From Betaproteobacteria bacterium (lineage in GTDB: Bacteria; Pseudomonadota; Gammaproteobacteria; Burkholderiales; Rhodocyclaceae), in NCBI GenBank assembly GCA_016208425.1, contig JACQYA010000118.1:3350-67349 (forward strand): a stretch of 64,000 nucleotides of DNA, read 5' to 3'. The position numbers were made by a program, and so were the translations under genes. This document shows, in pieces, positions 6,627 to 33,428 of this stretch (positions are counted from its first letter, which is position 1; each line of letters opens with the position of its first letter). Below the pieces are notes generated by a model. That model had not been told where the DNA came from and did not search any database. It saw only the letters and a program-made list of their open reading frames with translations.

Positions 6627-6674
6627 ACGAGCCAAAATATCCGTCATTTTGCCAACTCGCAGATACCGAATCCC

Positions 6675-6699: not shown

Positions 6700-6960
6700 T
6701 GTAGGCTCATCTGCGGGATTTGAAAAGGCCTGTTATCACGGCTTTCTTCTCTACTCCAGCATGAATCCACCCGCCGACGCCCCACTGACGGACATGACTT
6801 GCGCCTGCGACCTGTGAGTTGACACTCCTCCCTTTCTATTTGTCGCTACAGAATGACTTGGAAGACCCGGATTTGGTTCATGCGTTGCTGGCGATACCGG
6901 GAAAATGATTTCGCGTGTTGCGCGTGATTTACAACGAAACGAGGGAACCGGTTACGGTAG

Positions 6961-7800: not shown

Positions 7801-7853
7801 TTGGATTCCCTCCTTCGCGTGAACGACGAAAACCGGATTTATAGAAGTGCCCT

Positions 7854-9224
7854 TTATTTCACCCACGGTGCCGGCTTGCGCACGGCTTCCCAGACCGGGC
7901 TTTCCATCGACAACGCCAACTGGCGGGCGAGTTCGACCATGCCGGTGTAGCCGGCGTAGCCGAATTCGCGTTCCTGGTTGATGTCCAGGAAGGGGATGCG
8001 CGCTTTCAGCGCCGTGTAGAGATTACGCCCGCCGGCGATCAGGATGTCGGCGCGGTACTCGTGGTACGCGGAGAGCAACGCTTTCGGGCTACCGTCGTCG
8101 ATCATCGTCGTCTCGTCGCCCATCAGCTCGCGGATGCGCGCCTTGTCTTCCTCGGTGGATTTGCGCGTGCCGGTGGCGACGACCTTCATGCCGAGATCCT
8201 GCAGGGCCGAGACGACAGACCACGATTTGACGCCCCCCGTGTAAAGCAGCGCGCGCTTGCCTTCGAGCCGCCCGCGCCAGGGTTCGAGCGCGGCGTCCGA
8301 CCGGGCTTCCTCGCGGGCGATGATCGCTTCGGTGCGCGCGACCAGATCCGGGTCGCCGATCAGGCGGGCAAAATCGCGCAGCGCGCCGGAAACGTCCTGC
8401 ACGCCATAGAAGCTGCCCTCGAAGAAAGGGATGCCGAAACGCTCGTGCATCTTGCGCGCGACGTTGAGCAGCGCTTTGGCGCAAACGACCATATTCGCCT
8501 TGGCGCGATGCATGGTCTGGACGTGACGGAAGCGCGCATCGCCGGACAGCGTGCAGAGTATGCGCAGGCCGAGCTCGTCGAATAGCGGCGCGACGTGCCA
8601 GAACTCGCCGGCGATGTTGTATTCGCCGATCAGGTTCACGTCGTAGGTCGGCAGGCCGTCGGCGCGTGGGGCGGCGGGCGCCGGTTCGCGCGTGCCGATC
8701 ACATGCTTGAACATCGCCTCGCCGGCCAGCCGGTTGCCGAGGTTCTTGGTGCCGTAGAATCCGGCCGCGTCGACCGGGACGACCGGCGTGCCCCAGCGCC
8801 CGCTCGCCGCCTTGCAGACAGCGTCCAAATCGTCGCCGATCAGCGCGGGAACACAGGTGTTGTAGACGAATACCGCCGCTGGCGCATAGCTGTCGATGGC
8901 CTGCTTGATCGCCAGGAACAAGCGCTTCTCGCCGCGCCCCATCACGACATCGGTTTCCGACAGGTCGGTGGTCATCCCGATGCGGTAGAGCGCGATGCCG
9001 GAAGAGCGCGTTCCCCGGTTGTCCCACGACGACCCGGCGCAGGCGATCGGCCCGTGCACGATGTGCGCGACATCGGCGATCGGCAACAGCACGATCTGCG
9101 CGCCGTCGAAGGAACAACCGCCCGCCGTCGCGCCCGGCGCCGGCCGCGCGCAGCCGGATTTCTCCTTCGTGTTGTGGCTACAGGCCGGCTCGTCGAGCAG
9201 AGCCTGAATCTCGCTGGCTTTCAT
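7854..9224 (-). CDS. nifE: FeMo-cofactor biosynthesis scaffold NifE
   Basis: 456 aa. [25 protein letters not shown]...[37 protein letters not shown] is typical of NifE. Confidence 0.95.
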
Positions 9225-9254
9225 GCGGGTCTCCAGAGGTCTGGATTACCCTGA

Positions 9255-9269
9255 GCAAGATAGGTGCCA
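9255..9269 (-). promoter_or_regulatory. sigma54 -24/-12 promoter for nifE
   Basis: Minus strand reads TGGCAC-CTATC-TTGC (consensus), 31 nt upstream of the nifE ATG. Confidence 0.88.
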
Positions 9270-9311
9270 CCTATAGATTATTGTTTTTGCGGAAAAATAT
9301 TCTTTGCGGTT

Positions 9312-9327
9312 TGTCACAAAGGCGACA
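9312..9327 (-). promoter_or_regulatory. NifA upstream activator site for nifE
   Basis: TGTCACAAAGGCGACA. An AT-rich tract (9270..9300) lies between the UAS and the -24 element. Confidence 0.8.
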
Positions 9328-9541
9328 ATGAGGCGCGAAGACACCTGCGGGGAGCCGGGAAGTACAAATTACCGACGGCGTTGCGGGCGGGTAAACAACG
9401 GGGTCGAAACTTGGTAACAACGCCGCACCAGTTTGAATCACACCCGGAATGATGGGGTCGGTTTCCGGCTACGGCGATTGTCGCCCCTGGTTCCAACGCC
9501 GGCGCGCGCGCAGCCCGCGTCCGGCCGGGGCGAAACAGCGC

Positions 9542-9811
9542 CTATTCTCCGTCCATATCCCGGCGCGGGACGGTGGACGGGTCGGCGATGATCGGGCGGT
9601 AGATTTCGATGCGGTCGCCGGGCTTCAGGGCGGCTTCCAGCTTGACGAGGCGGCCGAAGATGCCGACCTTCTGCGCGCCGAGGTCGATATGGGGAAACTG
9701 TCCGACGATGCCGGAGCGCGCTATGGCGTCGCCGACGGTCGCCGTCTCGGGAACTTCGATATTCAGCCAGATTTGCTGGCCGGGTTCGGAATAGGCGACA
9801 CCGATCTGCAT
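9542..9811 (-). CDS. rnfH: RnfH (ubiquitin-like UPF0125 family)
   Basis: 89 aa from internal ATG with a GGAGAG SD (MQIGVAYSEPGQQIWLNIEVPETATVGDAIARSGI...). Last gene of the rnf cluster. Confidence 0.85.
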   Translation of the reverse strand: MQIGVAYSEPGQQIWLNIEVPETATVGDAIARSGIVGQFPHIDLGAQKVGIFGRLVKLEAALKPGDRIEIYRPIIADPSTVPRRDMDGE

Positions 9812-9827
9812 CTTGCTCTCCCCGTTT

Positions 9828-10505
9828 CTATGCGGTCCCGCAACGTTCCCCGGCACGCGCTTGCAGCCGGCTTTCCATGGCACGCTTGCCGGCGAGCAGG
9901 AAACCGAGCACCGCGAAACCGCCGGGCGGCAGGATCATCAGCAGCGCGCCGCCGTAGCCCGGTATGTTCACTTCGAGAAAGGCGAAAGCCGGCCCGAGCA
10001 GGTTGGAGGCTTGCGCGAACAGCGTGCCGGCGCCGAGAAACTCGCGGATCAGGCCGATCCCGGTCAGCGCGCCGGTAAAGCCCAGGCCCATCGCCAGGCC
10101 GTCGGCCGCCGAGGCGACGACGCCGTTCTTGACGGCGAAGGCTTCGGCCCGCCCGAGGATGGCGCAGTTGACGACGATCAGCGCGATGAACAGGCCGAGC
10201 ACTTTGTAGAGATCGTGCAGCCAGGCATTCATCGCCATGTCGACGACGGTGACGAGCGTCGCGATGAGCACGACGAAGACCGGGATGCGCACCTGCGAGC
10301 TGACGGTATGGCGGATCATCGACACCAGCGCGTTGGAAACGACGAGCACCGCCGTGGTCGCCAGCCCCATGCCGAGGCCGTTGGTGCCGCTGGTCGTCAC
10401 GGCCATCGTCGGGCACATGGCGAGCAACTGCGAAAAAACCACGTTCTGCGTCCACAGCCCGTCCTTCATGATGCCGCCCAGATTGCTGCCCAGAGTCTTG
10501 CTCAT
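9828..10505 (-). CDS. rnfE: Rnf electron transport complex subunit E
   Basis: 225 aa. ...GLWTQNVVFSQLLAMCPTMAVTTSGTNGLGMGLATT... The ATG overlaps the rnfG stop (ATGA). Confidence 0.93.
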   Translation of the reverse strand: MSKTLGSNLGGIMKDGLWTQNVVFSQLLAMCPTMAVTTSGTNGLGMGLATTAVLVVSNALVSMIRHTVSSQVRIPVFVVLIATLVTVVDMAMNAWLHDLYKVLGLFIALIVVNCAILGRAEAFAVKNGVVASAADGLAMGLGFTGALTGIGLIREFLGAGTLFAQASNLLGPAFAFLEVNIPGYGGALLMILPPGGFAVLGFLLAGKRAMESRLQARAGERCGTA

Positions 10506-19179: not shown

Positions 19180-19578
19180 TTATCGGCGCGTCGGCTCCGG
19201 GGTTTCCCGCTTCAAGCACCCCGCCAACGCCGCATCCATCGTGGCGACATGGAGTGCGAACCAGTCCGGCAGCGCCCGGACATAGATTCTCGCCAGGCCG
19301 ATTCGACCGGCCTTCACCCCGCGCGCGAAATAGCCGAGTTCGCCGAGTACGCGCAGGTGCTCGCTGTTGTGCTCGCCGGTGGCGGGAAAGCGGCAGGCCT
19401 TCATCAGTGTGCCTTCATGCTCGAAATGCAGCCGGGTATGCTCGTGCAGGTGCGCGAAGAGTGCCGGAAACGCCTCGTCCGGGGCGGCCATCAGCGCATC
19501 GGCGGCTTCGATGAATTCCCGGTGGGTGGCGTCCATTTCCGCCACGCCCAGGGCGTATCCCGATTCATCCCACGGCAT
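19180..19578 (-). CDS. Bacteriohemerythrin-like protein
   Basis: 132 aa from internal ATG (MPWDESGYALGVAEMDATHREFIEAADAL...HLHEHTRLHFEHEG...). Has the W-x(n)-G-x(3)-D-x(2)-H and H-F-x(2)-E hemerythrin ligand pattern. Confidence 0.8.
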   Translation of the reverse strand: MPWDESGYALGVAEMDATHREFIEAADALMAAPDEAFPALFAHLHEHTRLHFEHEGTLMKACRFPATGEHNSEHLRVLGELGYFARGVKAGRIGLARIYVRALPDWFALHVATMDAALAGCLKRETPEPTRR

Positions 19579-19870
19579 CAGAGCGCCCCGCGCGTACACG
19601 CCGTACCGCCGCCGTTGCGGGCGAGAAATTTGGTCGCCGGGCCTGAGCCGGGAGCGATACGGCCGTTTTGGGGGCAGCTTGTCGGTTTTTCGTGCAGTTC
19701 CGGGGTCATGGGGTGGACTCTGTGGGGTGGGCGTAAAGCGCTTGCAGCAAGTTCCGCGCCCGTCCGCAACCGGCGCGGCGGCACGGCTTGCAGACCGCCC
19801 GGCAGACCGGTTGTCGGGTTTGTTACACGGCGCGATGGGCCGGGTTGCCGGCAGGAAGTACAATCCGGCG

Positions 19871-20395
19871 ATGAAATCAAACCCAACAAACGAAACCGGC
19901 GAGGCCGATACGCCCGCAGCGGTCAGCGCGCCGCGCCTGTGGCGCCACAACGGATGGACTGCCCGCGTCATCAAGAGCGAAGACGACGACGGCTGGGCGG
20001 TGGAAATGTTGCTGGACGGTGAGGCCGAGCCGGCACTGGTCGGCCCGTGGACGATGGGGCGCGACAAAAAGAACCCGAAGCCGATCGATGCCCCGGCGTT
20101 CAACACCCTGGTCAAGACCGCCACCGAAGTGCTCCGCCGCCATGAGCAGCAACGGTATGCGCAATACCACAAGAGCATCGCGGCAAGCACGGCGGAAGGG
20201 CCGGTCACCGTAACGCTCGACATCGTGCCGGACGAAGACTACCCCTACGCGCTGCTCGCCGCACGCGATGCGGGCGGCGAGCGGCTGGCCGAGGTGCGCG
20301 TTGCGCCCGACTTCAAGCTGAGTCTGTCCAGCGCCGGCGCGTGGATAGAGAAAGGCTTCGGCAAACCGGGGGATGGCGGAAATTCCAGAGGCTGA
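19871..20395 (+). CDS. Hypothetical protein (no family recognised)
   Basis: 174 aa from ATG 19871. Strong GC3 bias typical of host genes. Convergent with draT. Confidence 0.6.
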   Translation: MKSNPTNETGEADTPAAVSAPRLWRHNGWTARVIKSEDDDGWAVEMLLDGEAEPALVGPWTMGRDKKNPKPIDAPAFNTLVKTATEVLRRHEQQRYAQYHKSIAASTAEGPVTVTLDIVPDEDYPYALLAARDAGGERLAEVRVAPDFKLSLSSAGAWIEKGFGKPGDGGNSRG

Positions 20396-20593: not shown

Positions 20594-21478
20594 TCAGATT
20601 GTCGACAAGGTCACATCGACCACGCCGCCAATTACCAGAAACTCGTCCTCGCCCTGCAACACGCCGGGCAATAAACCGCAGTAGAAAAAAATCTTGGTCA
20701 GCGGTATTTCGGCGGCGAGGATGGTGTCGCCGAATTCGCCCGCGCGCTCGCGGCTACGGGTGAAGGAACTGAGGTTGTTGAGCAGGATGACATGGTGGCC
20801 GCCCCCGCCCCCGCTCAAAACCTCGTGATCCGCCATGCGGTTGACGCCACGGTAGAGCGTGACGTGACGGGCTGCCGGGTGGTGGCGCTGCAACTCGCGC
20901 TGGCAGAAGGTGTACACGAGGTCGAACTGCGACTCCAGCGCGTTGGTGCCATACAGCCCGCGCGCGCGCATTTCCAGGTATCGCCCGTAGGCATCGCCGG
21001 AGGAGTCGCGCAGCGGCCGGCCGTGATGGCGCGGCACCAGGCCGAACCGGGACTCGACCCAGCCTTTTAGCACCGCGCCTTCGCGGCTGTCGGAACCGAA
21101 GCTCCAGCCGCGAACCATGCGCGCGTAGCCGGCTTTGGCGCGCCCCTCAAATTTCCCGGTAAAGCCCATTTCCTCGGGATGCTCCAGGCGGAAATGCACG
21201 GTCAGGTAGTCGCGAAAGACAGCGGCACGCGCTTCGGGCAACGCGGCGTCCAGGCGCTTGAAGAGATCGCCGTGCAACTCGGCAACGCCGTCGAGCAAGA
21301 GCGGGCTGGGGTATTGCTGGTAGGTCAGGCCGCCGAGCACGACCGCCGGCAAATTGCAGCGGTTGATCGGCAGACGCGCGTCGCGCGGCAACGATGCTTT
21401 GTCGTCACCCTGACAAAGCGCGGGGGGGTTGTCGTGTCCCCACGCTTCCGTGGTGACCGACACATTCTGAATTTTCAT
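20594..21478 (-). CDS. draT: NAD+:dinitrogenase reductase ADP-ribosyltransferase DraT
   Basis: 294 aa. R-S-ExE ART signature (TLYRG, NLSSFT, QGEDEFLV) and overall DraT-like sequence. Divergent from nifH, as in other DraT-containing diazotrophs. Confidence 0.88.
   Translation of the reverse strand: MKIQNVSVTTEAWGHDNPPALCQGDDKASLPRDARLPINRCNLPAVVLGGLTYQQYPSPLLLDGVAELHGDLFKRLDAALPEARAAVFRDYLTVHFRLEHPEEMGFTGKFEGRAKAGYARMVRGWSFGSDSREGAVLKGWVESRFGLVPRHHGRPLRDSSGDAYGRYLEMRARGLYGTNALESQFDLVYTFCQRELQRHHPAARHVTLYRGVNRMADHEVLSGGGGGHHVILLNNLSSFTRSRERAGEFGDTILAAEIPLTKIFFYCGLLPGVLQGEDEFLVIGGVVDVTLSTI
21400..21415 (+). promoter_or_regulatory. NifA upstream activator site for nifH (inside the draT 5' coding region)
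   Basis: TGTCGTCACCCTGACA, 99 bp upstream of the -24 element. Confidence 0.8.
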
Positions 21479-21513: not shown

Positions 21514-21528
21514 TGGCACGCAACGTGC
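21514..21528 (+). promoter_or_regulatory. sigma54 -24/-12 promoter for nifHDK
   Basis: TGGCAC-GCAAC-GTGC, 65 nt upstream of the nifH ATG. Confidence 0.85.
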
Positions 21529-21581: not shown

Positions 21582-22484
<903 letters not shown>

Positions 22485-22570: not shown

Positions 22571-24046
22571 ATGACCACTCTGTCTCGCGCAGAGACCGAA
22601 GCCCTCATCGCCGAGGTGCTTGAGGTCTACCCCGAAAAAGCCAGGAAGGACCGCGCCAAGCATCTCACGGCCAACGATCCGGGCATCGAACAATCGAAGA
22701 AATGCATCACTTCCAACCGCAAGTCGCTGCCCGGCGTGATGACCATACGCGGTTGCGCCTACGCCGGTTCCAAGGGCGTGGTCTGGGGGCCGATCAAGGA
22801 CATGATCCACATCTCGCACGGCCCGGTCGGCTGCGGCCAGTACTCGCGCGCCGGCCGCCGCAACTACTACGTCGGCACGACCGGCGTCGACGCCTTCGGC
22901 ACGATGAACTTCACGTCCGACTTCCAGGAAAAGGACATCGTCTTCGGCGGCGACAAGAAACTCGCCAAGCTGCTCGACGAAGTCGAACAACTGTTCCCGC
23001 TGCACCGGGGCATCTCGGTGCAATCCGAGTGCCCGATCGGCCTGATCGGCGACGACATCGAATCGGTCTCCAAGAAGGGCGCCGCCGCCATCGGCAAGCC
23101 CATCGTCCCGGTCCGCTGCGAAGGTTTCCGGGGCGTTTCGCAATCGCTCGGCCACCACATCGCCAACGACGCGATCCGCGACTGGGTGCTCGACAAGCGC
23201 GACGGTTCGCCGGACACCTCGACGCCCTACGACGTGGCCATCATCGGCGACTACAACATCGGCGGCGACGCCTGGGCCACGCGCATCCTGCTCGAAGAGA
23301 TGGGCCTGCGCGTCGTCGCCCAGTGGTCTGGCGACGGCACGCTGGCGGAAATGATGAACACGCCGAAGGTCAAGCTGAACCTGCTGCACTGCTACCGCTC
23401 GATGAACTACATCAGCCGGCACATGGAAGAGAAGTACGGTATTCCGTGGATGGAATACAACTTCTTCGGCCCGACCAAGATCGTCGAATCGCTGCGCCGC
23501 ATCGCCGCTTTCTTCGACGACCAGGTCAAAGAGAAGACCGAAGCCGTGATCGCCCGCTATCAGCCGATGATGGACGCCATCGTCGCCAGGTACAAGCCGC
23601 GCCTGCAGGGCAAGAAGGTGATGCTCTACGTCGGCGGCCTGCGCCCGCGCCACGTGATCGGCGCCTACGAGGATCTCGGCATGGAAGTGATCGGCACCGG
23701 CTACGAGTTCGGCCACAACGACGACTACGACCGCACGACCAAGGAAATGGGCGACGCGACGCTGATCTACGACGACGCCACCGGCTTCGAGCTGGAAGAG
23801 TTCGTCAAGAAGCTCAAACCCGACCTCGTCGGCTCCGGCATCAAGGAAAAATATATCTTCCAGAAGATGGGCATTCCGCTGCGCCAGATGCACTCCTGGG
23901 ACTACTCCGGCCCCTACCACGGCTACGACGGTTTCGCCATCTTCGCCCGCGACATGGACATCGCGCTGTCCAGCCCGGTCTGGGGCAAGCTGGTGCCGCC
24001 CTGGAAGAAAACCGTTGCTGAAGAGGAAGTGAAAGAGGCCGCCTGA
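22571..24046 (+). CDS. nifD: Nitrogenase MoFe protein alpha chain NifD
   Basis: 491 aa. ...[39 protein letters not shown]..., [10 protein letters not shown] (FeMoco Cys). Confidence 0.98.
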
Positions 24047-24101: not shown

Positions 24102-24162
24102 CTCGAGTTAAACAACCTGATGCGGGTGTCCGCAGATGAGCGGCACCGGCAAGGAGAACGCC

Positions 24163-25731
24163 ATGCAAACCGCAGAAAAGATCAAGCCCTGTTACCCGCT
24201 GTTCCGCGACGACGATTACAGGAAATCGCTCGCCGACAAGCGTAGCCAGTTCGAGGAAGGCCACTCCGCCGAGACAGTCCACGAAACCTTCCTGTGGACG
24301 ACAACCCAAGAATACCAGGAACTCAATTTCAAGCGCTCCGCGCTGACGGTCGACCCGGCCAAGGCCTGCCAGCCGCTCGGCGCCGTGCTGTGCGCCACCG
24401 GCTTCCACAAGACGCTGCCCTACGTGCACGGCTCGCAAGGCTGCGTCGCCTACTTCCGCACCTATTTCAACCGCCATTTCAAGGAGCCGTGTTCCTGCGT
24501 CTCCGACTCGATGACGGAAGACGCGGCGGTGTTCGGCGGCCAGAAGAACATGTACGACGGCCTGGCCAACGCCAAGGCCATCTACCGGCCGGAAATGATC
24601 GCCGTGTCGACCACCTGCATGGCGGAAGTGATCGGCGACGATCTGAACGCCTTCATCAACAACACGAAGAAGGAAGGGCACATCCCGCAGGATTTCCCGG
24701 TGCCCTTCGCGCACACGCCGTCCTTCGTCGGTTCGCACACCACCGGCTGGGACAACATGTTCGAGGGCATCATGCGCTCCTTCACGCTGAACACGATGGA
24801 GGGCAAGCAGGTCGGCGCCAACGGCAAGATCAACATCGTTCCCGGCTTCGAGACCTACCTCGGCAACTACCGCGCGATCAAGCGCATGCTCGGTGAAATG
24901 GACGTCGATTACACCTATCTGTGCGATCCGAGCGAAGTGTTCGATACGCCGGCCGACGGCGAATTCCGCATGTACGCCGGCGGCACGACGCAGGACGAGA
25001 TCAAGGATGCGCCGAACGCCATCACCACTCTGCTGCTGCAACCGACGCACCTGGAAAAGACGAAGAAGTTCGTCGAGAACACCTGGACGCACGAAGTTCC
25101 CAAGCTGAACATCCCGATGGGCGTCGACTGGACGGACGAGTTCCTGATGAAAGTCTCCGAAGTCACCGGCAAGGCGATTCCCGGATCGCTCGCCAAGGAG
25201 CGCGGCCGCTGCATGGATCTCATTGCCGACAGCCACGCCTGGCTGCACGGCAAGAAGTTCGCGCTCTACGGCGACCCGGACTTCGTCCTCGGCATGGTCA
25301 AGATCCTGCTCGAATGCGGCGCCGAGCCGACCCACATCCTCTCGCACAACGGCAACAAGCGCTGGACGAAGGCGGTCGACAAGCTGCTCGCGTCCAGCCC
25401 CTTCGGCGTCAACGGCAAGGTCTATGCCGGCAACGACCTGTGGCACATGCGCAGCCTGTGCTTCACCGACAAGCCGGATTTTCTGATCGGCAACTCCTAC
25501 GGCAAGTACATCCAGCGCGACACCAGGCACAAAGGCGAGGAGTTTGAAGTGCCGCTGATCCGCCTCGGCTTCCCGATCTTCGACCGCCATCACCTGCACC
25601 GCCAGACGACGATGGGTTACGAAGGGACGATGTCCATCGTCACGCAACTGACCAACGCCGTCCTCGAGCAACTCGACAAGGAAACGATGGCGATGGGAAC
25701 GACGGACTTCAATTTCGACCTGGTCCGCTAA
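24163..25731 (+). CDS. nifK: Nitrogenase MoFe protein beta chain NifK
   Basis: ATG 24163 is preceded by an AAGGAGA SD; the alternative start at 24136 adds 9 aa. ...ALTVDPAKACQPLGAVLCATGFHKTLPYVHGSQGCVAYFR... Confidence 0.97.
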   Translation: MQTAEKIKPCYPLFRDDDYRKSLADKRSQFEEGHSAETVHETFLWTTTQEYQELNFKRSALTVDPAKACQPLGAVLCATGFHKTLPYVHGSQGCVAYFRTYFNRHFKEPCSCVSDSMTEDAAVFGGQKNMYDGLANAKAIYRPEMIAVSTTCMAEVIGDDLNAFINNTKKEGHIPQDFPVPFAHTPSFVGSHTTGWDNMFEGIMRSFTLNTMEGKQVGANGKINIVPGFETYLGNYRAIKRMLGEMDVDYTYLCDPSEVFDTPADGEFRMYAGGTTQDEIKDAPNAITTLLLQPTHLEKTKKFVENTWTHEVPKLNIPMGVDWTDEFLMKVSEVTGKAIPGSLAKERGRCMDLIADSHAWLHGKKFALYGDPDFVLGMVKILLECGAEPTHILSHNGNKRWTKAVDKLLASSPFGVNGKVYAGNDLWHMRSLCFTDKPDFLIGNSYGKYIQRDTRHKGEEFEVPLIRLGFPIFDRHHLHRQTTMGYEGTMSIVTQLTNAVLEQLDKETMAMGTTDFNFDLVR

Positions 25732-25790: not shown

Positions 25791-26018
25791 ATGGCCAACA
25801 TCATGATCCGGCAAGCCGACGGTGGCGGGCTGACGTTCTACTTGCCGAAGCGCGATCTGGAAGCCCCGATCTCGTCCATCGAATTCGACACCCCGGAAAA
25901 ATGGGGCGGCGAGCTGAAACTGGACAACGGTGGGGCGTATTACATCGACCCCATCGCCAGACCGCCGCGCCTGCCCGTTTCCCTGCGCGCCAGGCGTCTC
26001 GGCGCGGCCGAAGACTAA
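25791..26018 (+). CDS. nifT: NifT/FixU
   Basis: 75 aa. MANIMIRQADGGGLTFYLPKRDLEAPI...WGGELKLDNG matches the NifT family pattern, in the conserved position after nifK. Confidence 0.88.
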   Translation: MANIMIRQADGGGLTFYLPKRDLEAPISSIEFDTPEKWGGELKLDNGGAYYIDPIARPPRLPVSLRARRLGAAED

Positions 26019-26103: not shown

Positions 26104-26295
26104 ATGGCAATGAAAATCGACCCCGACATGTGCACCGCCTGCGGTGACTGCAAGGACGTTTGTCCGACCCAATCGATCACCGCCGGCAAGATCTATTTCA
26201 AGATCGCGGCGGCGACGTGCGCCGAATGCGACGGTCACAACGATACCCCGCTGTGCGCCGATGTCTGCTCGGCCGGCTGTATCGGCCCGGCCTGA
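26104..26295 (+). CDS. Small 4Fe-4S ferredoxin
   Basis: 63 aa from ATG 26104 (GAGGAG SD). CTACGDCKDVCP plus CAECDGH...CADVC. Confidence 0.8.
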   Translation: MAMKIDPDMCTACGDCKDVCPTQSITAGKIYFKIAAATCAECDGHNDTPLCADVCSAGCIGPA

Positions 26296-26390: not shown

Positions 26391-27122
26391 ATGCCCAACA
26401 CTCCCATCGCCTCCCGCGAAGCCGCGCTGCGCATCGCGTTGGCCGCCCGCGCCCTGAACGGCCTCGATGTGCGCGCCCTGGTCGGCGCGCTGGTCGAGAA
26501 GCTCGGCTCCCCGCTCACCGAATCCCGGCTCGGCACGCTGGCCGTCGAAGATCTGCGCACCATCGTAGCCGGCAACTTCGCCGATCAGGGCTGCCATGTC
26601 GGCATCGGGGCCGGAACGCTGAAACAAGCCGTTCGCCTGCTCTGGGGCCAGGGTGCCGACAACAGCGACCTCCCCGCCGTCGACCCGTACACCGAAGGCG
26701 AAATGCCCGGCTCGATCCGCGTCGCAGTCGCCGCCAACCGCGGCGAAAACCTCGACGGCCATTTCGGTTCGTGCGAGCGTTTTCTGATCTATCAGGTCGG
26801 CCGGGAAACGGCGAAGCTGGTCGCCGCACGTTCGGCGGCCGAAGCGGACACCGCCGAAGACAAAAACGCCGCCCGTTCGGCGCTGATCGGCGACTGCCAG
26901 ATCGTATACGTGCAATCGATAGGCGGCCCCGCCGCCGCCAAGGTCGTGCGCGCCGGCGTGCATCCGGTCAAAATACCGGCCGGCGGCAAGGCGCGCGAAC
27001 TGCTGGTCGCGCTGCAAGACCGGCTCGCCAGCCCGCCTCCCTGGCTGGCGCGGATCATGGGCGTGCCGCCGGCTTCGCTGGCGCGTTTCGCCGACGGGCC
27101 GGCGGCCGGGGTGGCGGCATGA
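26391..27122 (+). CDS. nifY: NifY/NafY-like FeMo-cofactor carrier (NifX/NifB-C domain family)
   Basis: 243 aa. C-terminal domain IRVAVAANRGENLDGHFGSCERFLIYQV...IVYVQSIGGPAAAKVVRAGVHPVK is a NifX-family fold. Position after nifHDKT. Confidence 0.82.
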   Translation: MPNTPIASREAALRIALAARALNGLDVRALVGALVEKLGSPLTESRLGTLAVEDLRTIVAGNFADQGCHVGIGAGTLKQAVRLLWGQGADNSDLPAVDPYTEGEMPGSIRVAVAANRGENLDGHFGSCERFLIYQVGRETAKLVAARSAAEADTAEDKNAARSALIGDCQIVYVQSIGGPAAAKVVRAGVHPVKIPAGGKARELLVALQDRLASPPPWLARIMGVPPASLARFADGPAAGVAA

Positions 27123-27382
27123 TTACGCCCCGGCTGCTCGTTCGCATCGGTGAGGCGATCCAGCTAAACCCGGCCGTCTCCCTGCTGCGCCGGCACTTTC
27201 CCGACCTGCACTTCAGCGAGTGTACCGGCGACGACGTTTCGCCCCGTTACCGGGCGGCGTTGAGCTTCGACGGCTACGACCTCTATCTTGTTTCCGGCGC
27301 TCCGGGACACTGTTTCGAGCTGACCGACGACCCCGCAACAGCGACCGGCATTCTCGTTGCCGCCAAAACCTATGACGCCTGA
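27119..27382 (+). CDS. Small hypothetical protein, translationally coupled to nifY
   Basis: 87 aa. The ATG overlaps the nifY stop (ATGA). High GC3. No family recognised with confidence. Confidence 0.6.
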   Translation: MITPRLLVRIGEAIQLNPAVSLLRRHFPDLHFSECTGDDVSPRYRAALSFDGYDLYLVSGAPGHCFELTDDPATATGILVAAKTYDA

Positions 27383-28385
27383 CAGAACTTTTGCCGGAGC
27401 CGGGCCTGCGCCACGGATGAGTGACGCCGTCGGCTGGGCGGAATACTGCAAGTCGCTCGCCCCCGCTATCGCCGAGACCTGTGCCACGGTGCCGGTCAAC
27501 AGCGGCTCCGGCGCGCTCGTCAAAGCGCTCGGCGTGGCGCTGCCGGAGTGGAAGTTCCGCCACGCGATGAGCCGGGGCGGCTGGTATCGCCTGGGCGGCG
27601 TGCACGATGGCTGCGGCGTGCGCGTCTCCGGCAACCTCGAAACCTGGGCCAAAGACGCCCTCGACGAACGCGGCGGCGATTTTGGCCGGCTCGCCGACGA
27701 CTTCGCCGGCCGGACGCTGTTCGCCACCCGTCTGGTGGGCCAGACGCACTATCTGGTCGCCACCGCCGACGAAAGCGCGGACGGTTTCCTGCAACTGGAA
27801 ATCGAAGCCGTGCAGGAGATGCGCGTCCACCGGCTTTTTGCCGGCGATCCGTCCTCCCTCGAAGAGCTGGTCGACCCGCGCGGCGGCGCCGGCCAACCGG
27901 TGCCGCTCGGCCTGCCCGGTTACGCCTTCCGCCGCCTCCAGCACATCGGCGCCTTCCTGCGCCGCATGCTGGCGCAAAGCCCCGTCCCTGCGCCCATCCA
28001 CCGCATGCTCGACGACTGGTCGAAAAGCAGCGCGGGCCATACCGGCGCCTATTGCCGCCACTGGGTCATCGCCACCCGCGAGCACCTGGACCGCTACCAC
28101 CAACCGGTTTTCCGGGCGCAACCGATCTCGGTGCAGGCCGGCGCGGCACCGGAATTTGGCGCCGCCGACGGCACCAGCGGCCTCAAGCTGAACGAAGCGC
28201 TCGCCCGCTTCGACCGCGAAGCCGGCTACCCGATGGCCTGGTATTTCCACATGTTGGGCACCCGGTCTGTCCCGCACCGGGTCGCGCAAACCGTCGTCGA
28301 AGATTCGCTGGCCGGCTTCGCCTACCTGCCGCAACGCGACGTCGACGTGGTGCGCGGCTGGCTGCACCGGCCGTACTCGGTATAG
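27372..28385 (+). CDS. Hypothetical protein (about 337 aa), no recognisable family
   Basis: ATG 27372 overlaps the preceding ORF by 11 nt (the track start at 27357 is TTG). Host-like codon bias. No motif I can name. Confidence 0.65.
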   Translation: MTPDRTFAGAGPAPRMSDAVGWAEYCKSLAPAIAETCATVPVNSGSGALVKALGVALPEWKFRHAMSRGGWYRLGGVHDGCGVRVSGNLETWAKDALDERGGDFGRLADDFAGRTLFATRLVGQTHYLVATADESADGFLQLEIEAVQEMRVHRLFAGDPSSLEELVDPRGGAGQPVPLGLPGYAFRRLQHIGAFLRRMLAQSPVPAPIHRMLDDWSKSSAGHTGAYCRHWVIATREHLDRYHQPVFRAQPISVQAGAAPEFGAADGTSGLKLNEALARFDREAGYPMAWYFHMLGTRSVPHRVAQTVVEDSLAGFAYLPQRDVDVVRGWLHRPYSV

Positions 28386-28425
28386 CCGGCCGTGGCTGGC
28401 GCGTGGGGATAACCCGGAGAAAATC

Positions 28426-29289
28426 ATGGCGCCAGAACTGCGCGACAAGCTGTTGGCCGGCCTCAAAAACGGCGGTATCGTTCCTTACCTTGGCCCCGGC
28501 GTCCTCGCCGACGTGAGGGACGCGGCGACCGGCGCGCCGATTCCGTCCGACAGCGATTCGCTGATCCTGGCGATGAACGGTGGGAAGCCGATGGCGGCCA
28601 AGCTGATGTACGAGTTTCCGCGCGCCGCGATGAACGTCGAACTGAAGCGCGGGCGCGGCGCGGTGAGCAAGTTCCTGAACCGCACCTACGGCGGCACGGT
28701 GTGGACGCGCGGCGCCGTGCACGACTGGCTGAAAGCGATTTCCCCGCACTACGTGGTCGACATCAACCGCGATACGCAACTTCAGGATTCCTACGCCGAC
28801 ACGCCCCATAACCTGGTCGTCGGCGTCGCGCGCACCGGCGGCACGGATTTCCGCTACAAGCTGTATTCGTGGGACGGCAACGCCTACCGGAGAACCGACC
28901 TGATCGATCCGTCCCTCCCCATCCTGTTCAAGCCTATGGGTACGCCGAAACCGGAAGCAAACTACATCGCTTCCGACGCCGACTACGTCGATTTCATTAC
29001 CGAGCTGATGGGTGGCTTCGCTATCCCGCCGGAGCTCAAAGCGCTGCGCGGGGGCAAGCAATATCTGCTGCTCGGCCTGCGCCTTAACCGCGACACCGAG
29101 CGCATGGTGATGGCCGACATCATCTACGGCGCCGCACGGCCCGCCGGCTGGGCGCTGATCGGGGCGCCGACCGACAAAGAGCGCCGCTTCTGCACAAAAC
29201 TTGGCCTGGAGCTGATCGAGGGCGATGTTTTCGATGCCTTCGATTCCTCCAATGTCTCCGATCCGACCGGCGCGCCCGGGACAGCATAG
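28426..29289 (+). CDS. SIR2-like (SIR2_2 / DHS-like NAD-binding fold) protein, putative catalytic His replaced
   Basis: 287 aa with a GGAGA SD. Ordered motif matches to the SIR2_2 family: IVPYLGPGV (GAGxS-like loop), VVDINRDTQLQ (TNYD-like), LFKPMGT (KlHGs-like with Met in place of His), YIASDADYVDFI (teeDY), YLLLGLRLNRDTER (liGySl.D). Confidence 0.65.
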   Translation: MAPELRDKLLAGLKNGGIVPYLGPGVLADVRDAATGAPIPSDSDSLILAMNGGKPMAAKLMYEFPRAAMNVELKRGRGAVSKFLNRTYGGTVWTRGAVHDWLKAISPHYVVDINRDTQLQDSYADTPHNLVVGVARTGGTDFRYKLYSWDGNAYRRTDLIDPSLPILFKPMGTPKPEANYIASDADYVDFITELMGGFAIPPELKALRGGKQYLLLGLRLNRDTERMVMADIIYGAARPAGWALIGAPTDKERRFCTKLGLELIEGDVFDAFDSSNVSDPTGAPGTA

Positions 29290-29317: not shown

Positions 29318-30268
29318 TCAGGCCGGTTCGCCGAAGCCGGCGAGCGCGAGCAGCGCGTGCGCCTGCTCCGAACACTGCGCGGCGATCTTGCCGTCGAGCG
29401 CCCTCAGCCAGCGCCGGGGAATGCCTTCCACCCCGTAACGCGCACCGGCCAGCATGCCGGCGATAGCGCCCGTGGTGTCGGCATCGCCGCCCCGGTTGAC
29501 GACATCGAGCAGACAGTCTTCAAAGCTCGAGGTGGAGACGGAACCCTGAAAAACGGCCTGCATCGTTTCGACCACATAGCCGCTCGGGTTTTCGCGCCGC
29601 TTCTTGTCGAAGGCGAAAGCCGGATAGGCGCCGACCAGCGCTTCCGCTCGCCGCTGAAATGCGTCCGCCGCATCGCGCCCGGCGAGCAAATCGTGCACGA
29701 CGAATACCAGCGTTTCGCAGGCAGCATCCGACAAGGCATTGTGATGCGTGACGTGGGCCTGGGCGCGGCTGGCGGCAATGATTTTTTCCTCGGGCTGGCC
29801 GTAGCAGGCGAGCGCGACGGGCAAAACGCGCATGGCCGCGCCGTTGCCGGCGTCGTGCTCGCAAACGGTGGCCTGCGGGTTTCCCGTACCGCGAAAGCGG
29901 ATCAGGTTGCGGCGCACGGTGTTGCCGACATCGACCGGCCGGGCCCGCATCCAGGCGTCGAAAGCGTCGGCGGCGGCCTGTGCGCGGACACCCCCGGCGG
30001 CCAGGATCGCCCGCCCGAGCGCCAGCGACATGGTCGTGTCGTCGGTGACCTGGCCGGCTTTCAGACGCAGCCAGCCACCGCCGGTGAGGTCGCGGTGTAC
30101 GCCATACTGGTGGCGTATTTCGTTCGGCGTGAGGAATTCGACCGTCGCGCCCAGGGCGTCGCCGACGGCCAAACCCAAGTAGGCGCCCGCCGCCTTGCCG
30201 GGCAATGGGGCGGCTTTTTCCGGCAGCACCGTCAGGCGGTGGGCGATCAGGTCTCCGGGCCGAAACAT
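29318..30268 (-). CDS. draG: ADP-ribosyl-[dinitrogen reductase] glycohydrolase DraG
   Basis: AYLGLAVGDALGATVEFLTPNEIRHQYGVHRDLTGGGWLRLKAGQVTDDTTMSLALG is the typical DraG/ARH family sequence. Start uncertain: ATG 30268 overlaps nifQ by 22 nt, GTG 30229 is an alternative, and the track start at 30295 is TTG. Confidence 0.88.
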   Translation of the reverse strand: MFRPGDLIAHRLTVLPEKAAPLPGKAAGAYLGLAVGDALGATVEFLTPNEIRHQYGVHRDLTGGGWLRLKAGQVTDDTTMSLALGRAILAAGGVRAQAAADAFDAWMRARPVDVGNTVRRNLIRFRGTGNPQATVCEHDAGNGAAMRVLPVALACYGQPEEKIIAASRAQAHVTHHNALSDAACETLVFVVHDLLAGRDAADAFQRRAEALVGAYPAFAFDKKRRENPSGYVVETMQAVFQGSVSTSSFEDCLLDVVNRGGDADTTGAIAGMLAGARYGVEGIPRRWLRALDGKIAAQCSEQAHALLALAGFGEPA

Positions 30269-30843
30269 CTCGCGTAGTCCTTGCATTCGCCGCAAGACGG
30301 GGCGGGACAGACGTAGATGCCTTCAAGCGCGCAAAACTGGCGGTAGAGGAATTTCTTCCACTTCATGTCGCCGCTGTTGGCGCGCGCGAGTTCGGGGAAA
30401 TTCGCGCGCATCAGCGCAGTGAGCTGGGCGCGGTCGAGCAGGCCGAGATCCTGCCACAGGTGGTGGTTGCCGGCGCAGGCGGTGGCGACGATGTCGGCGA
30501 TCCACAGCTCCGAACCGCGCTCCCGGGCGCGGTGGCCGACCAGCAGTTTTTGCAGGTCGCCCCACTCGGGGATCGTTTTGGCGTCCGTTTTGGCACCCGC
30601 TTCGGCGCACTCTTCCGGCGCGATATCCTCGTAGCCGGGAAAGTGTTCGGCGGCCATGCGGCGATAGGCTGCCTCGCCGAGGCCAAGGTGGTTCGGCAGG
30701 CAGCCGGCACCGGCGGCGCGGCTGGCGATCAGGGTGGCGAGAAACCGCCGGTTCGGATCGCCGGTTGCGGCGGAAGTCGCGGGCGTCGCCAGCAGGGCGG
30801 CAAGCAGCGTCGCGCAATAGGGCAGGCGTTCGGGAGCGTTCAT
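30247..30843 (-). CDS. nifQ: Molybdenum-processing protein NifQ
   Basis: 198 aa. C-terminal Cys motif CPAPSCGECKDYARC (Cx4Cx2Cx5C) and ...HHLWQDLGL...MKWKKFLYRQ... Confidence 0.88.
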   Translation of the reverse strand: MNAPERLPYCATLLAALLATPATSAATGDPNRRFLATLIASRAAGAGCLPNHLGLGEAAYRRMAAEHFPGYEDIAPEECAEAGAKTDAKTIPEWGDLQKLLVGHRARERGSELWIADIVATACAGNHHLWQDLGLLDRAQLTALMRANFPELARANSGDMKWKKFLYRQFCALEGIYVCPAPSCGECKDYARCFGPET

Positions 30844-30856
30844 GATCCCGGCTCCC

Positions 30857-31219
30857 CTACTTGCTCGGATATTCGACGAGGATGTCCTCGTCGCGAACGA
30901 TCATCTGGCAGGCCAAACGCCATTGCGTCGGCGGGATGTCATCGATGTACATCCGCTCGATCTGCGCCTTGGTGATGTGGCCGAGCTCGCCCAGCGCGGC
31001 GACTTCGCGCGCGTTCAGCGGGCCGCCCATCGGCCGCCGCTTGCCGTCGACCGAGGAAACCTTGACCAGGCAGGTGCCGCAGTTGCCCTCCTGGCAGCCA
31101 AAGTCGATCGGGATGTGATGTTCCTTGGCCAGCGCCAGGATGGTCTGCGTGTGGCTGCCGGCCACGGCATAGACGGTCTTGTCCTTGTGCATCGGGCTGG
31201 TGAAGGTGATGAGCGCCAT
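30857..31219 (-). CDS. [2Fe-2S] ferredoxin
   Basis: 120 aa. CQEGNCGTC...C pattern (plant/vertebrate-type 2Fe-2S ligands). Confidence 0.8.
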   Translation of the reverse strand: MALITFTSPMHKDKTVYAVAGSHTQTILALAKEHHIPIDFGCQEGNCGTCLVKVSSVDGKRRPMGGPLNAREVAALGELGHITKAQIERMYIDDIPPTQWRLACQMIVRDEDILVEYPSK

Positions 31220-31277
31220 TTTGGGTTTCTCCGGGTAACAGGTTGGGTCAGGGTTTCCGCCAGACCGGGCGTCGTTC

Positions 31278-31565
31278 TCAGGCGGGGCTGACGACGATTT
31301 CGCCGCCGATGATCTGCGCCTGGCAGGCCAGGCGGTGCTGGCGGGGCGCCATGTTGTCCTTGAGCACCTGATCTTCGAGGATCGACGGTGGCGCCAGGTT
31401 TTCCCCTCCCGAGACGATCCTCGTCAGGCAGGTGCAACATTCGCCTTCGCGACAGCCGTAGGTGATGCCGGCGCCAACCGTTTCCGAGACTTCGATCAGA
31501 CGGGTGCCGGCCGGCACGGTGACGGTAACGCCGATGTCGGCAAAGGTGACTTTGGCTTTGGGCAT
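31278..31565 (-). CDS. [2Fe-2S] ferredoxin
   Basis: 95 aa. CREGECCTC...LACQ pattern. Confidence 0.8.
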   Translation of the reverse strand: MPKAKVTFADIGVTVTVPAGTRLIEVSETVGAGITYGCREGECCTCLTRIVSGGENLAPPSILEDQVLKDNMAPRQHRLACQAQIIGGEIVVSPA

Positions 31566-31587
31566 TGCGTGTTCCTGTCAAAAGTGC

Positions 31588-31627
31588 GTCATACCGGGCT
31601 CGCCGGAATCCCGGTGAGCGAGCCCGG
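31588..31627. repeat. REP-like unit plus extended hairpin
   Basis: GTCATACCGGGCTCGCCGGAATCC (related to 6675..6699) and a 10-bp inverted repeat CCGGGCTCGC/GCGAGCCCGG. Confidence 0.5.
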
Positions 31628-31837
31628 CGGGTTGAGCGGATCGCCCGCTTCGTCGACGATGGCGCACTCGATCGGGCAGATCGCGGCGCATTGCGCTTCG
31701 GCGTAGTCGCCCAGACACTCGGTGCATTTTTGGTCGTCGACCAGAAAGTGCGGTATCTCCCGAGCGATTGCCCCGTTGGGGCAGACCCCGGCGCAGGCCC
31801 AGCAGTTGACGCACGCTTGAGTGATCTGCAAAGCCAT
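31589..31837 (-). CDS. fdxN: 2x[4Fe-4S] ferredoxin, FdxN-like
   Basis: 82 aa from internal ATG 31837, 3 nt after the nifB stop. CVNCWACAGVCP and CTECLGD..CAAICP. The last ~12 codons and the stop lie inside a REP-like hairpin. Confidence 0.82.
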   Translation of the reverse strand: MALQITQACVNCWACAGVCPNGAIAREIPHFLVDDQKCTECLGDYAEAQCAAICPIECAIVDEAGDPLNPPGSLTGIPASPV

Positions 31838-31839
31838 GA

Positions 31840-33378
31840 TTACGCTGCCTGTCTTTCTGTAGCCGGCAGCGCAAGCTTGCCGTTGGCGTGCAATTCCCGG
31901 TAAACCGCCAGGACGGCATCCTCTACCGGCTCCAGCGCGTGCTCGCCGTTCGGCCAAATGCCGTGGGTTTCCAGCTTGTTCCAGGGTTCGTAGCCGATCT
32001 TCGAGCAGAGCACGACTTCGCAGCCGGCCAGCGCGGCAACGGTTTTGTCGAGAGCCGCTTCGGGCCGGCCGTCGTCCCCGCCGCAGGTGGCGGAGCCGCC
32101 GCAATAGAGGTCGGTCTTGCGGTGGCCGATAAAGCGGACGCCGCCTGGCGAAGCTTCGTAAATCTGGAACTCGCGGGCGTGGCCGAAGTGTTCGGCGACG
32201 AGGCCGTTCTTGCCGGCGACGGCCATCAGCACGCTTCTCGTACCCGCCGGGATGCCGTGATCGGCCGCGGCCGGGGCATGCGGCGCGCCCCCGGCTTCAC
32301 GCCGCAGCGTTTGCTGTTGTTCCCGCTTTTGCCTCAATTCGCCATGGATCGCGTCGCGCACCTCCTTGCGGCGGATCAGGGCGGTTTCGTAGTCGATGTC
32401 GCCGAGCGCGAGGCGGTCGATCTTGTCCAGCGTAAACTCCGGGCCGCGATCCTCGCCGAGCAAGCCGACCGCGTCGGCGCGGCACTGGCGGCAGTGCCGC
32501 ATCATCGCCATGTCGCCCGCGCAATCGTCCTGCAGCTCCCGCAATTGTGCGGTGGTCGGCTCCGGCTGTCGCATCAGGCCGTAGTAGGTGCCGTGCCCGG
32601 CTTCGGCGATCAACGGCATAACGTTGTGCAGGAACGCGCCTTTGGCCTTGACCCGCTTCGAAACTTCCTTCAGGTGCCTGTCGTTCACGCCCGGGATCAG
32701 CACCGAGTTGACCTTCACCAGAACGCCGCGCGCGGTCAGCATCTCCAGCCCCTTCTGCTGCTGCTCGACCAGAATCCTCGCCGCTTCGACACCACGGATG
32801 CGCCTGTTCTGCCAGAAAATCCACGGATAGATTTTGGCGCCGACATCCGGGTCGATGCAGTTGATCGTTATCGTCACGTGGTCGATGTTGTGCCTGGCGA
32901 TTTCGTCGGCGTACCGCGGAAGATTGAGGCCGTTGGTCGACACGCAGAGCTTGATGTCCGGCGCCCGTTCGGATAGCTGGCGGAAGGTCTCGAAAGTACG
33001 GGCCGGGTTGGCCAGCGGGTCTCCCGGCCCGGCGATGCCGAGCACCGTCATCTGCGGGATGGCAGCCGCCACGGCAAGCACCTTCTTGATCGCCTGCCCG
33101 GGCGAAAGAAGTTCGGAAACGACGCCGGGACGCGACTCGTTGGCGCAGTCGTACTTGCGGTTGCAGTAGTTGCACTGGATGTTGCAGGCCGGCGCCACAG
33201 CCACGTGCATGCGGGCAAAGTAGTGGTGCGCCTCCTCCGAGTAGCAAGGGTGATCCTGCACCTTGGCGCGGATGTGATCGGGAAGATGCGCCAGCGCATC
33301 GGGCGCCGCGCCGCAGCCGCCGGAAGAGCAGCCACCGCCGGCTGCGGGGGCGGTATTGCCGATAACGGGTAAGTCCAC
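31840..33378 (-). CDS. nifB: Radical SAM FeMo-cofactor biosynthesis protein NifB (with C-terminal NifX-like domain)
   Basis: HPCYSEEAHHYFARMHVAVAPACNIQCNYCNRKYDC radical-SAM motif. Start reassigned to GTG 33378 (AGGAGA SD 6 nt upstream), because the track TTG start at 33429 is the TGGCAC of the promoter. Confidence 0.93.
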   Translation of the reverse strand: MDLPVIGNTAPAAGGGCSSGGCGAAPDALAHLPDHIRAKVQDHPCYSEEAHHYFARMHVAVAPACNIQCNYCNRKYDCANESRPGVVSELLSPGQAIKKVLAVAAAIPQMTVLGIAGPGDPLANPARTFETFRQLSERAPDIKLCVSTNGLNLPRYADEIARHNIDHVTITINCIDPDVGAKIYPWIFWQNRRIRGVEAARILVEQQQKGLEMLTARGVLVKVNSVLIPGVNDRHLKEVSKRVKAKGAFLHNVMPLIAEAGHGTYYGLMRQPEPTTAQLRELQDDCAGDMAMMRHCRQCRADAVGLLGEDRGPEFTLDKIDRLALGDIDYETALIRRKEVRDAIHGELRQKREQQQTLRREAGGAPHAPAAADHGIPAGTRSVLMAVAGKNGLVAEHFGHAREFQIYEASPGGVRFIGHRKTDLYCGGSATCGGDDGRPEAALDKTVAALAGCEVVLCSKIGYEPWNKLETHGIWPNGEHALEPVEDAVLAVYRELHANGKLALPATERQAA

Positions 33379-33413
33379 GATGCGTTCTCCTGGGATGCTG
33401 TCGAGCCTGTTCA

Positions 33414-33428
33414 GCAATCGTCGTGCCA
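33414..33428 (-). promoter_or_regulatory. sigma54 -24/-12 promoter for the nifB operon
   Basis: Minus strand reads TGGCAC-GACGA-TTGC (consensus). Confidence 0.88.

Follow-up and report, generated by a model that had tools for sequence, protein, structure and literature searches.

The nifH operon and the three genes at its end

We examined a 64,000-nucleotide (nt) stretch of DNA from a bacterium of the Rhodocyclaceae, hereafter the window, which carries a nitrogen fixation (nif) island. This study deals with three consecutive open reading frames, ORF1 to ORF3, which lie on the forward strand at the end of the nifH operon of this island, and which are found regularly as accessory genes in nitrogen-fixation clusters. 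ORF1 (27119..27382) encodes a protein of 87 amino acids (aa) with a DUF6129 match. ORF2 (27417..28385, 322 aa) belongs to no known family and, in other genomes, is the last gene of nifHDK...nifY operons. ORF3 (28426..29289, 287 aa) is predicted to adopt the SIR2_2 fold, has a Met (M171) at the catalytic His position, and is devoid of a promoter of its own in the window.

Upstream of these genes, and on the same strand, the operon comprises nifH (21594-22484), nifD (22571-24046), nifK (24136-25731) and nifT (25791-26018), all identified from their ORFs and translations. Their order is identical in the close relatives L086/L087 (Pfam Fer4_NifH, Oxidored_nitro and NifT; L numbers designate the loci compared in this study). 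They are followed by a gene for a small 4Fe-4S ferredoxin of 63 aa (26104..26295, translation MAMKIDPDMCTACGDC...), with 63-aa Fer4 genes at the equivalent site in L081 and L086, and by nifY (26391..27122), whose product matches DIMCO_N (PF16844, E 5e-25) and Nitro_FeMo-Co (PF02579, E 1e-20). The start of ORF1 overlaps the nifY stop codon (27120-27122) through an ATGA at 27119-27122, and ORF3 starts after a gap of 40 nt behind ORF2, with a GGAG Shine-Dalgarno motif 8 nt before its ATG. Both junctions had been placed correctly in an earlier, sequence-only description of the window, hereafter the first-pass annotation.

Two genes of ADP-ribosylation control are found on the reverse strand. The dinitrogenase reductase ADP-ribosyltransferase gene draT (20594..21478; PF07357 DRAT, E 8.6e-95) is divergent from nifH, and the ADP-ribosyl-[dinitrogen reductase] hydrolase gene draG (29318..30295; TIGR02662, 392 bits for a cutoff of 337; PF03747) is convergent with ORF3. 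The convergence reported previously is right, and the spacing differs slightly, with 28 nt instead of 29 between the two stop codons (that of draG is at 29318). The position of draT and the presence of the GCAGRGVIT motif in NifH also agree with the first-pass annotation.

A sigma54 -24/-12 promoter is present on the forward strand at 21514..21528 (TGGCACGCAACGTGC, one mismatch to TGGCAC-N5-TTGC), 66 nt ahead of the nifH ATG. It is preceded, at a distance of about 114 nt, by a NifA upstream activator site of the TGT-N10-ACA type (21400..21415, forward strand, TGTCGTCACCCTGACA). Between this promoter and position 29289, no further match to the full sigma54 consensus was detected on the forward strand, and both a sigma54 element and a NifA site are absent upstream of ORF3. 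The looser pattern GG-N8-TTGC gave a single match, at 27347, without a NifA site. We considered it as an internal promoter for ORF2 and rejected it, on the grounds that it lacks this site and that the same kind of match recurs within the DUF6129 coding sequence at 4 of 17 other loci (peptides of the TGILVA/TGIVVA type), including where another gene, lrv, follows; it is probably a by-product of coding. Terminator-like matches were at chance level, with 11 found for 8.9 expected. These searches are in line with the earlier statement that neither a sigma54 promoter nor a terminator separates the ORFs, and co-transcription of ORF1, ORF2 and ORF3 with nifHDK is a reasonable prediction.

ORF3 is predicted to have a SIR2 fold with a variable catalytic position

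The five motifs that the first-pass annotation had quoted for the third gene all occur in the ORF3 translation. Against Pfam at E<=0.1, the sole match of ORF3 was SIR2_2 (PF13289), slightly below threshold (23.0 bits for a cutoff of 24.5, E 8.9e-5). The same model matched 22 out of 22 diverse ORF3 relatives, with a best E of 1.1e-20, and most close homologues carry a precomputed PF13289 match. NCBIfam contained no family for ORF1, ORF2 or ORF3, and a single-sequence search of PDB sequences with ORF3 returned chance-level matches. Among the 1.84 billion cluster representatives searched, 237 clusters were related to ORF3, and the family is therefore compact.

The AlphaFold model of ORF3 was of high confidence (predicted local distance difference test, pLDDT, 93; predicted template modelling score, pTM, 0.91), and Foldseek aligned it with 97 PDB entries at E<=0.001. 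The top matches were the SIR2 domains of the defence proteins DSR2, ThsA (Thoeris), KomC (Kongming) and AVAST5, all with probability 1.0, a template modelling (TM) score of about 0.6 and 11-15% identity. As modelled, ORF3 is a SIR2_2/SIR2-fold protein, and the earlier assignment to the SIR2_2/DHS-like group stands. Motifs common to ORF3 and defence SIR2_2 proteins are the Gly loop, the AQY...R helix, (T/D)xN(Y/R)D, K-x-x-G, D-Y and LG...D. Contrary to the defence proteins, ORF3 is a 287-aa single domain, without SLOG, sensor or partner domain; no defence partner, adjacent or fused, was found for it (SLOG, HerA, pAgo, ThsB or KomAB). No PADLOC model matched ORF1, ORF2 or ORF3 of the window (E<=0.01 for ORF3).

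We then looked at the residues of the active site. In nicotinamide adenine dinucleotide (NAD+)-cleaving enzymes (NADases) of the SIR2 type, the catalytic His belongs to a K-x-H-G motif (ThsA H152, DSR2 H171, KomC H146), and PDB entries of characterised members, where this His is treated as catalytic, include DSR2 H171A and KomC H146N. A profile of distant family members aligned with ThsA (6lhx) at E 1.6e-5, with ThsA N112 (TTNYD) on ORF3 N114 (DINRD) and ThsA H152 (YKMHGD) on ORF3 M171 (FKPMGT), as the first-pass annotation had proposed for the His-to-Met change. The Gly-rich loop of ORF3, LGPGV (residues 22-26), aligned with IGAGLS of 7uxt. In an alignment of 111 family sequences, G23 was kept in 110 and G25 in 94, and the Asn column contained 95 Asn and 9 Trp, plus others. 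The His column was composed of 77 Met, 19 Leu, 6 His, 3 Tyr, 2 Ile, 2 Phe and 1 Ala; Met or Leu thus stands where the defence NADases have their catalytic His. Even two species of Marinobacterium differ at this column, with Leu in one and His in the other. Asn and His were present together in only 3 of the 111 sequences, which are close orthologues (L048, L054 and L073). Because the His position varies in this way, canonical NAD+ cleavage or deacylation by the ORF3 family appears unlikely.

A second subfamily, made of rhizobial, Paraburkholderia, Leptospirales-type and Rhodobacteraceae-type members, has replaced the Asn by Trp, lost the second Gly of the loop and usually lost the His. Some charged residues are invariant in the family (E72, R77, D186, E193, R208 and R226), and others nearly so (D112, D116 and D184).

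The ORF3 family belongs, by its promoter elements, to the nitrogen-fixation regulon

To place ORF3 among its relatives, we scanned one genome per species and found at least 588 matching stretches encoding an ORF3 relative, of which the best 80 loci were surveyed for gene neighbourhood. They encode proteins 59-83% identical to ORF3, from Rhodocyclaceae, Chromatiaceae, Methylococcaceae, Sedimenticolaceae, Thiodiazotropha, Marinobacterium and others. Genes for nif or dra functions were found in the fetched flank of 56 loci (58 if fragments of nifB and nifH are counted), and in 32 of the 42 loci having at least 8 kb of flank on both sides. This family is more strongly, and more generally, linked to nitrogen fixation than the first-pass annotation had supposed.

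In the usual layout, as in L081 (Ferribacterium limneticum), one strand carries ORF2, lrv, the DUF6129 gene, nifY, the ferredoxin gene (fdx), nifT, nifK, nifD and nifH, and the other carries draT, at times a response-regulator/GGDEF gene, and the SIR2-like gene, with draG and nifQ convergent beyond it. At four loci (L053, L062, L073 and L078), the SIR2-like gene is directly divergent from nifH, and no draT is present in the fetched flank. At four others (L034, L049, L051 and L072), it is directly divergent from nifEN-like genes, with a nifX-like gene too in three of them; L051 has draG about 7 kb away from the SIR2-like gene.

A GG-N8-TTGC pattern was found 45-60 nt before the ATG of the SIR2-like gene in 78/80 loci, and a TGT-N10-ACA site, 50-160 nt further upstream, accompanied the sigma54 element in 63/80. 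In random 270-nt stretches, the background for promoter elements was 12%, 5.6% and 1%. The family keeps this NifA/sigma54 promoter of its own even directly downstream of draT.

Among the loci where nif and dra genes are missing up to a distance of 10 kb are L066, L068 and L074 (Methylomonas), L032 and L038 (Thiocapsa), and L011, where the SIR2-like gene lies beside urease genes. These six still carry the sigma54 element and TGT-N10-ACA upstream of the gene.

Relatives were also detected on plasmids. A tblastn search against plasmid sequences returned 72 records, 70 of them rhizobial, one from Paraburkholderia and one from Methylococcus. On a Rhizobium symbiotic plasmid (pSym), the homologue, which aligned at E 3e-23, is the last gene of an operon nifA-nifB-fdx-nifZ-nifT-SIR2, and the Paraburkholderia homologue on pBN1 also lies within a nif operon. 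The ORF3 family is a compact group of stand-alone SIR2_2-fold proteins that are, by their promoters, part of the nitrogen-fixation regulon, and its association is with nitrogenase at large, rather than with the DraT/DraG switch or with phage defence.

A rewired operon in the window lineage

The window departs from the usual layout at ORF3. Its similarity to relatives begins some 25-40 nt before the ATG, and the DNA farther upstream is the 3' end of ORF2. The arrangement in which ORF3 is appended to nifHDKT-fdx-nifY-DUF6129-ORF2 was found in none of the 80 species loci. The window also differs from the usual operons by the absence of lrv, a 4Fe-4S leucine-rich-repeat gene (PF01816 and PF05484), which we did not find anywhere in the 64 kb. 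In the three relatives with gene calls (L081, L084 and L085), lrv separates the DUF6129 gene from ORF2 (1032-1790 in L081); its counterpart interval in the window is 27383-27416.

The same layout, with ORF3 40 nt behind ORF2 and without its own promoter or lrv, recurs in L086/L087, which represent one close relative from two independent samples, and the sole close relative whose contigs were examined. The arrangement is therefore real and common to that lineage. If ORF3 is read through from the nifH promoter, as its position suggests, the regulon would have been kept and the wiring changed.

On the draT side, the Ferribacterium locus (L081) contains a response-regulator/GGDEF gene (8931-9869) between draT and the SIR2-like gene, and this stretch is followed by a gene for an unknown protein of 185 aa and then by a hemerythrin gene. 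The window retains only the hemerythrin gene (19207-19578, reverse strand), moved to the other side of draT.

ORF1 and ORF2 are regular genes of nif operons

ORF1 matches the DUF6129 model PF19624 with 97.6 bits for a cutoff of 23.6 (E 3.4e-28). A DUF6129 gene likewise comes after nifY in L081, L084, L085 and L086. ORF1 is thus a DUF6129 protein, and a regular follower of nifY, alike in family and in place to the DUF6129 genes of other nifHDKTY operons.

For ORF2, the first-pass annotation had correctly recognised a gene, with a start at the in-frame ATG 27372, which would give 337 aa and an 11-nt overlap with ORF1. We rejected this start for three reasons. First, about 1,000 homologues were found (871 at E<=0.001), and the 120 listed all cover 94-96% of the 337-aa query, nearly all being 322 aa long. 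Second, the relatives begin with MKETLAW..., and have stop codons a few codons upstream. Third, 4 codons of the 15-codon extension from ATG 27372 differ from those of the closest relative, and 3 of these differences alter the amino acid, whereas the ORF2 body is 93% identical; gene callers likewise picked the 322-aa start in this relative. Translation most likely starts at ATG 27417, so that ORF2 would be separated from ORF1 by a 34-nt gap, and not overlap it.

ORF2 matched no family in Pfam or NCBIfam. Single-sequence search of PDB sequences gave chance-level matches, and its profile gave nothing. The AlphaFold model is nevertheless confident (pLDDT 91.7, pTM 0.85), with long beta hairpins and helices, and Foldseek found nothing credible for it, the best match being at E 0.49 with TM 0.11 in PDB, and at E 0.026 with TM 0.12 in BFVD. 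The ORF2 fold, as modelled, may be one that has not been described so far. The first-pass annotation had similarly failed to place this protein in a family, and it turns out to be a conserved nif-operon gene. In relatives, ORF2 closes the nifHDK...nifY-DUF6129-lrv operon, in many cases immediately ahead of nifEN, and it is a conserved gene regularly ending the nifHDK operon in beta- and gammaproteobacteria. Not one of the 80 loci has ORF2 next to the SIR2-like gene or upstream of it. ORF2 belongs to nif operons independently of the SIR2-like gene, with which it is not regularly paired. In the Thiodiazotropha locus (L084), a 331-aa TrpD-like gene (7006-8001; PF02885 and PF00591, phosphoribosyltransferase-type fold) is present between lrv and ORF2, and its stop overlaps the ORF2 start.

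Other features of the nif island

The left part of the window carries, in order, nifS, nifU, a small ferredoxin gene, a DUF269 gene, nifX, nifN and nifE. Next come rnfH, rnfD, rnfC and rnfA, these being the rnf genes that were checked, and then a PAS/histidine-kinase-type gene (nifL-like), a GAF/sigma54-activator gene (nifA-like) and the hemerythrin gene, which precedes draT (reverse strand) and the nifH operon up to ORF3 (forward strand). To the right of ORF3, and convergent with it on the reverse strand, are draG, nifQ, two genes for 2Fe-2S ferredoxins, one for a 4Fe-4S ferredoxin, and nifB. In this nifB-fdx-fer2-fer2-nifQ-draG string (29318-33428), nifQ and draG overlap and draG is apparently the last gene. 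An exact sigma54 consensus, TGGCACGACGATTGC, lies immediately upstream of nifB, at 33414-33428. The consensus and the nifQ/draG overlap suggest that draG expression is NifA-dependent in the window.

Two other segments were unusual. Between nifN (5125-6567, reverse strand) and nifE (7854-9224, reverse strand), which are normally adjacent, a 1.3-kb stretch (6568-7853) has a G+C content of 51-59%, against about 65%, and contains, on the opposite strand, an ORF of 181 aa (7255-7800) for which Pfam gave no match. The stretch resembles foreign DNA inserted into the nifEN operon. A 185-aa ORF (19838-20395, forward strand), placed between the hemerythrin gene and draT, had no Pfam match either. The 185-aa Ferribacterium gene of L081, searched by tblastn across the window, found no match.

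SIR2-annotated genes of nif clusters in the literature

SIR2-family genes in nif clusters have already been noted in the literature, and what is unusual here is the operon wiring. In Pseudomonas stutzeri A1501, a strain in which neither DraT nor DraG has been found, PST1325 is adjacent to nifH and carries both sigma54 and NifA sites; it shows a 9.7-fold induction, and nitrogenase activity falls to 23% in a non-polar mutant (PMC2820453). PST1325 is annotated as SIR2 family (PMC11332353). In Rhodobacter capsulatus, Rcc03262 ends the nifB1-orf-nifZT-rcc03262 cluster, and its product was missing from a nifA double mutant (PMC6925177). ZMO1821 of Zymomonas mobilis is more abundant under N2 fixation (PMC8600466, PMC8594446). 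A SIR2_2 gene adjoins nifH in 23 out of 25 Thalassolituus genomes (bioRxiv 10.64898/2026.08.28.747955), and a 'sir2' gene is present in Paenirhizobium nif regions (PMC13455631).

Like ORF3, these genes are stand-alone, carry a SIR2 annotation, and lie within nif operons or next to them. NifA/sigma54 control (from the PST1325 sites and the loss of Rcc03262 in the nifA mutant) and induction under N2 fixation are recorded among them, and the aligned Rhizobium plasmid homologue belongs to the same nifB-fdx-nifZ-nifT-SIR2 type of operon as Rcc03262 (PMC6925177). In contrast with them, ORF3 of the window has lost its own promoter, and has been appended to nifHDKT-fdx-nifY-DUF6129-ORF2. The literature that we found on nif-linked SIR2 proteins consists of annotations, expression data and one mutant, with no tested function, and none of these papers mentions the missing catalytic His.

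Discussion

The best-supported reading of ORF3 is that of a non-catalytic or non-canonical accessory protein, which would bind a nucleotide or a partner and support nitrogenase activity. More fully, ORF1 to ORF3 would form the tail of a NifA/sigma54-driven nif operon, and ORF3 would be a SIR2-fold protein of the nif regulon, without canonical cleavage, rewired in this lineage and supporting nitrogenase; we give this a probability of about 0.6. ORF3 would be expressed by read-through from the nifH promoter. Its fold, as predicted, is still that of SIR2, and the GPG of the Gly-rich loop and the DINRD of the Asn/Asp motif are still present. The ligand of ORF3 is most likely of a nucleotide type, NAD(H)- or ADP-ribose-like, or else a protein partner, and NAD+ would not be cleaved in the canonical way, because the catalytic His position is a Met, and is freely variable in the family. 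Finally, ORF3 probably supports nitrogenase activity independently of DraT and DraG.

Several points weigh against this proposal. The binding role of ORF3 is deduced from catalytic residues that are missing, and its co-transcription with nifHDK from the gene layout. Asn and His are both found in L048, L054 and L073, and residual or lineage-specific catalysis is therefore possible. An active site of another kind could be made up of the conserved E72, R77, D186, E193, R208 and R226, together with D112, D116 and D184. At ten of the 42 fully flanked loci, neither nif nor dra genes are seen up to 10 kb away. Moreover, PST1325, Rcc03262 and ZMO1821 are tied to the ORF3 family by annotation and gene position only.

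A wider and more speculative proposal, doubtful but worth entertaining, is that nif-linked SIR2_2 proteins constitute a dedicated class of nitrogenase accessory proteins, conserved across proteobacterial diazotrophs. They would have a sirtuin fold that no longer cleaves NAD+, but would sense or hold an NAD(H)- or ADP-ribose-type ligand, or dock on a Nif protein, and so keep nitrogenase active, and the neighbouring ORF2 would be a second uncharacterised protein of nif operons, with a fold unseen in solved structures.

It is also rather unlikely, in our opinion, that ORF3 is a non-canonical enzyme, using the SIR2 fold as a nucleotide scaffold and E72, R77, D112, D116, D184, D186 and E193 for catalysis. 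Its substrate would be NAD+, ADP-ribose or a modified nitrogenase component, from which it would for instance remove an inhibitory modification. Such an enzyme is consistent with the conservation of the charged residues in both subfamilies, with the Gly loop and the Asn/Asp motif kept in the subfamily of the window, and with the 23% activity of the PST1325 mutant (PMC2820453), a loss compatible with a protein that lifts an inhibition. However, given the losses of the second loop Gly, of the Asn (now Trp) and usually of the His in the rhizobial and Paraburkholderia subfamily, the NAD pocket is not conserved family-wide. In addition, E72, R77, the D-Y motif and G217 are common to ThsA and other SIR2_2 proteins, and may be structural.

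The first-pass annotation had suggested an NAD+/ADP-ribose-linked sensor, sink or second modifier in nitrogenase regulation; that such a protein works with DraT and DraG on the NifH Arg we hold to be improbable. The convergence of ORF3 with draG in the window goes in this direction, as do a draG gene within 500 nt of the SIR2-like gene in 12/80 loci and a draT gene upstream, on the same strand, in 31/80 (directly adjacent in 12). However, the SIR2-like gene keeps a NifA/sigma54 promoter of its own downstream of draT, adjoins nifH at four loci without draT in the fetched flank and nifEN-like genes at four others, and is found in nifB...nifT operons on rhizobial plasmids. The phenotype of PST1325 comes from a strain in which neither DraT nor DraG was found (PMC2820453), and the catalytic His is absent from ORF3. 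Pairs made of SirTM and a macrodomain protein are not a close parallel: no macrodomain gene is present near ORF3, DraG is of the ADP-ribosylglycohydrolase family (PF03747), and its adjacency to the SIR2-like gene is not conserved.

A sirtuin-type lysine deacetylase, controlling the acetylation of nitrogenase or NifA, is very improbable, even if it corresponds to the SIR2-family annotation. This function was proposed for ZMO1821, which rises together with acetylome changes under N2 fixation (PMC8600466), and the idea was repeated for the Thalassolituus genes (bioRxiv 10.64898/2026.08.28.747955). CobB/Sir2 sirtuins and SirTM share with ORF3 the broad SIR2/DHS-like NAD-binding superfamily. Yet SIR2_2 was the only Pfam match of ORF3, with none to the sirtuin family, and its nearest structures are defence-type NADases rather than CobB or other sirtuins. 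The general-base His is missing in ORF3 and variable in its family, and ORF3 contains a single Cys, hence no Cys4 zinc module.

Lastly, the capture by chance of a defence-type SIR2 NADase effector into a nif operon, which the first-pass annotation had offered as an alternative, is hardly conceivable: the best fold matches of ORF3 are indeed defence proteins and distant family members weakly match the ThsA PADLOC model (E 3e-8), but the window protein matches no PADLOC model, lacks a sensor domain, a partner gene and the catalytic His, and sits in a nif context and not in a defence island, so that with at least 588 related stretches, and nif-type promoters in those examined, the survey of promoters and synteny in effect refutes this idea.

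SIR2-annotated genes thus recur in nif clusters, where the literature describes them as likely lysine deacetylases. Our analysis adds that the ORF3 family belongs to the defence-type SIR2_2 clade, that its catalytic His is not conserved, and that its NifA/sigma54 promoter is conserved even away from nif genes; the deacetylase and DraT/DraG readings are therefore disfavoured. ORF2 stands beside this family as a second conserved protein of nif operons without family or structural match. A non-canonical role of the ORF3 family in sustaining nitrogenase would bear on the transfer of minimal nif gene sets to other hosts.

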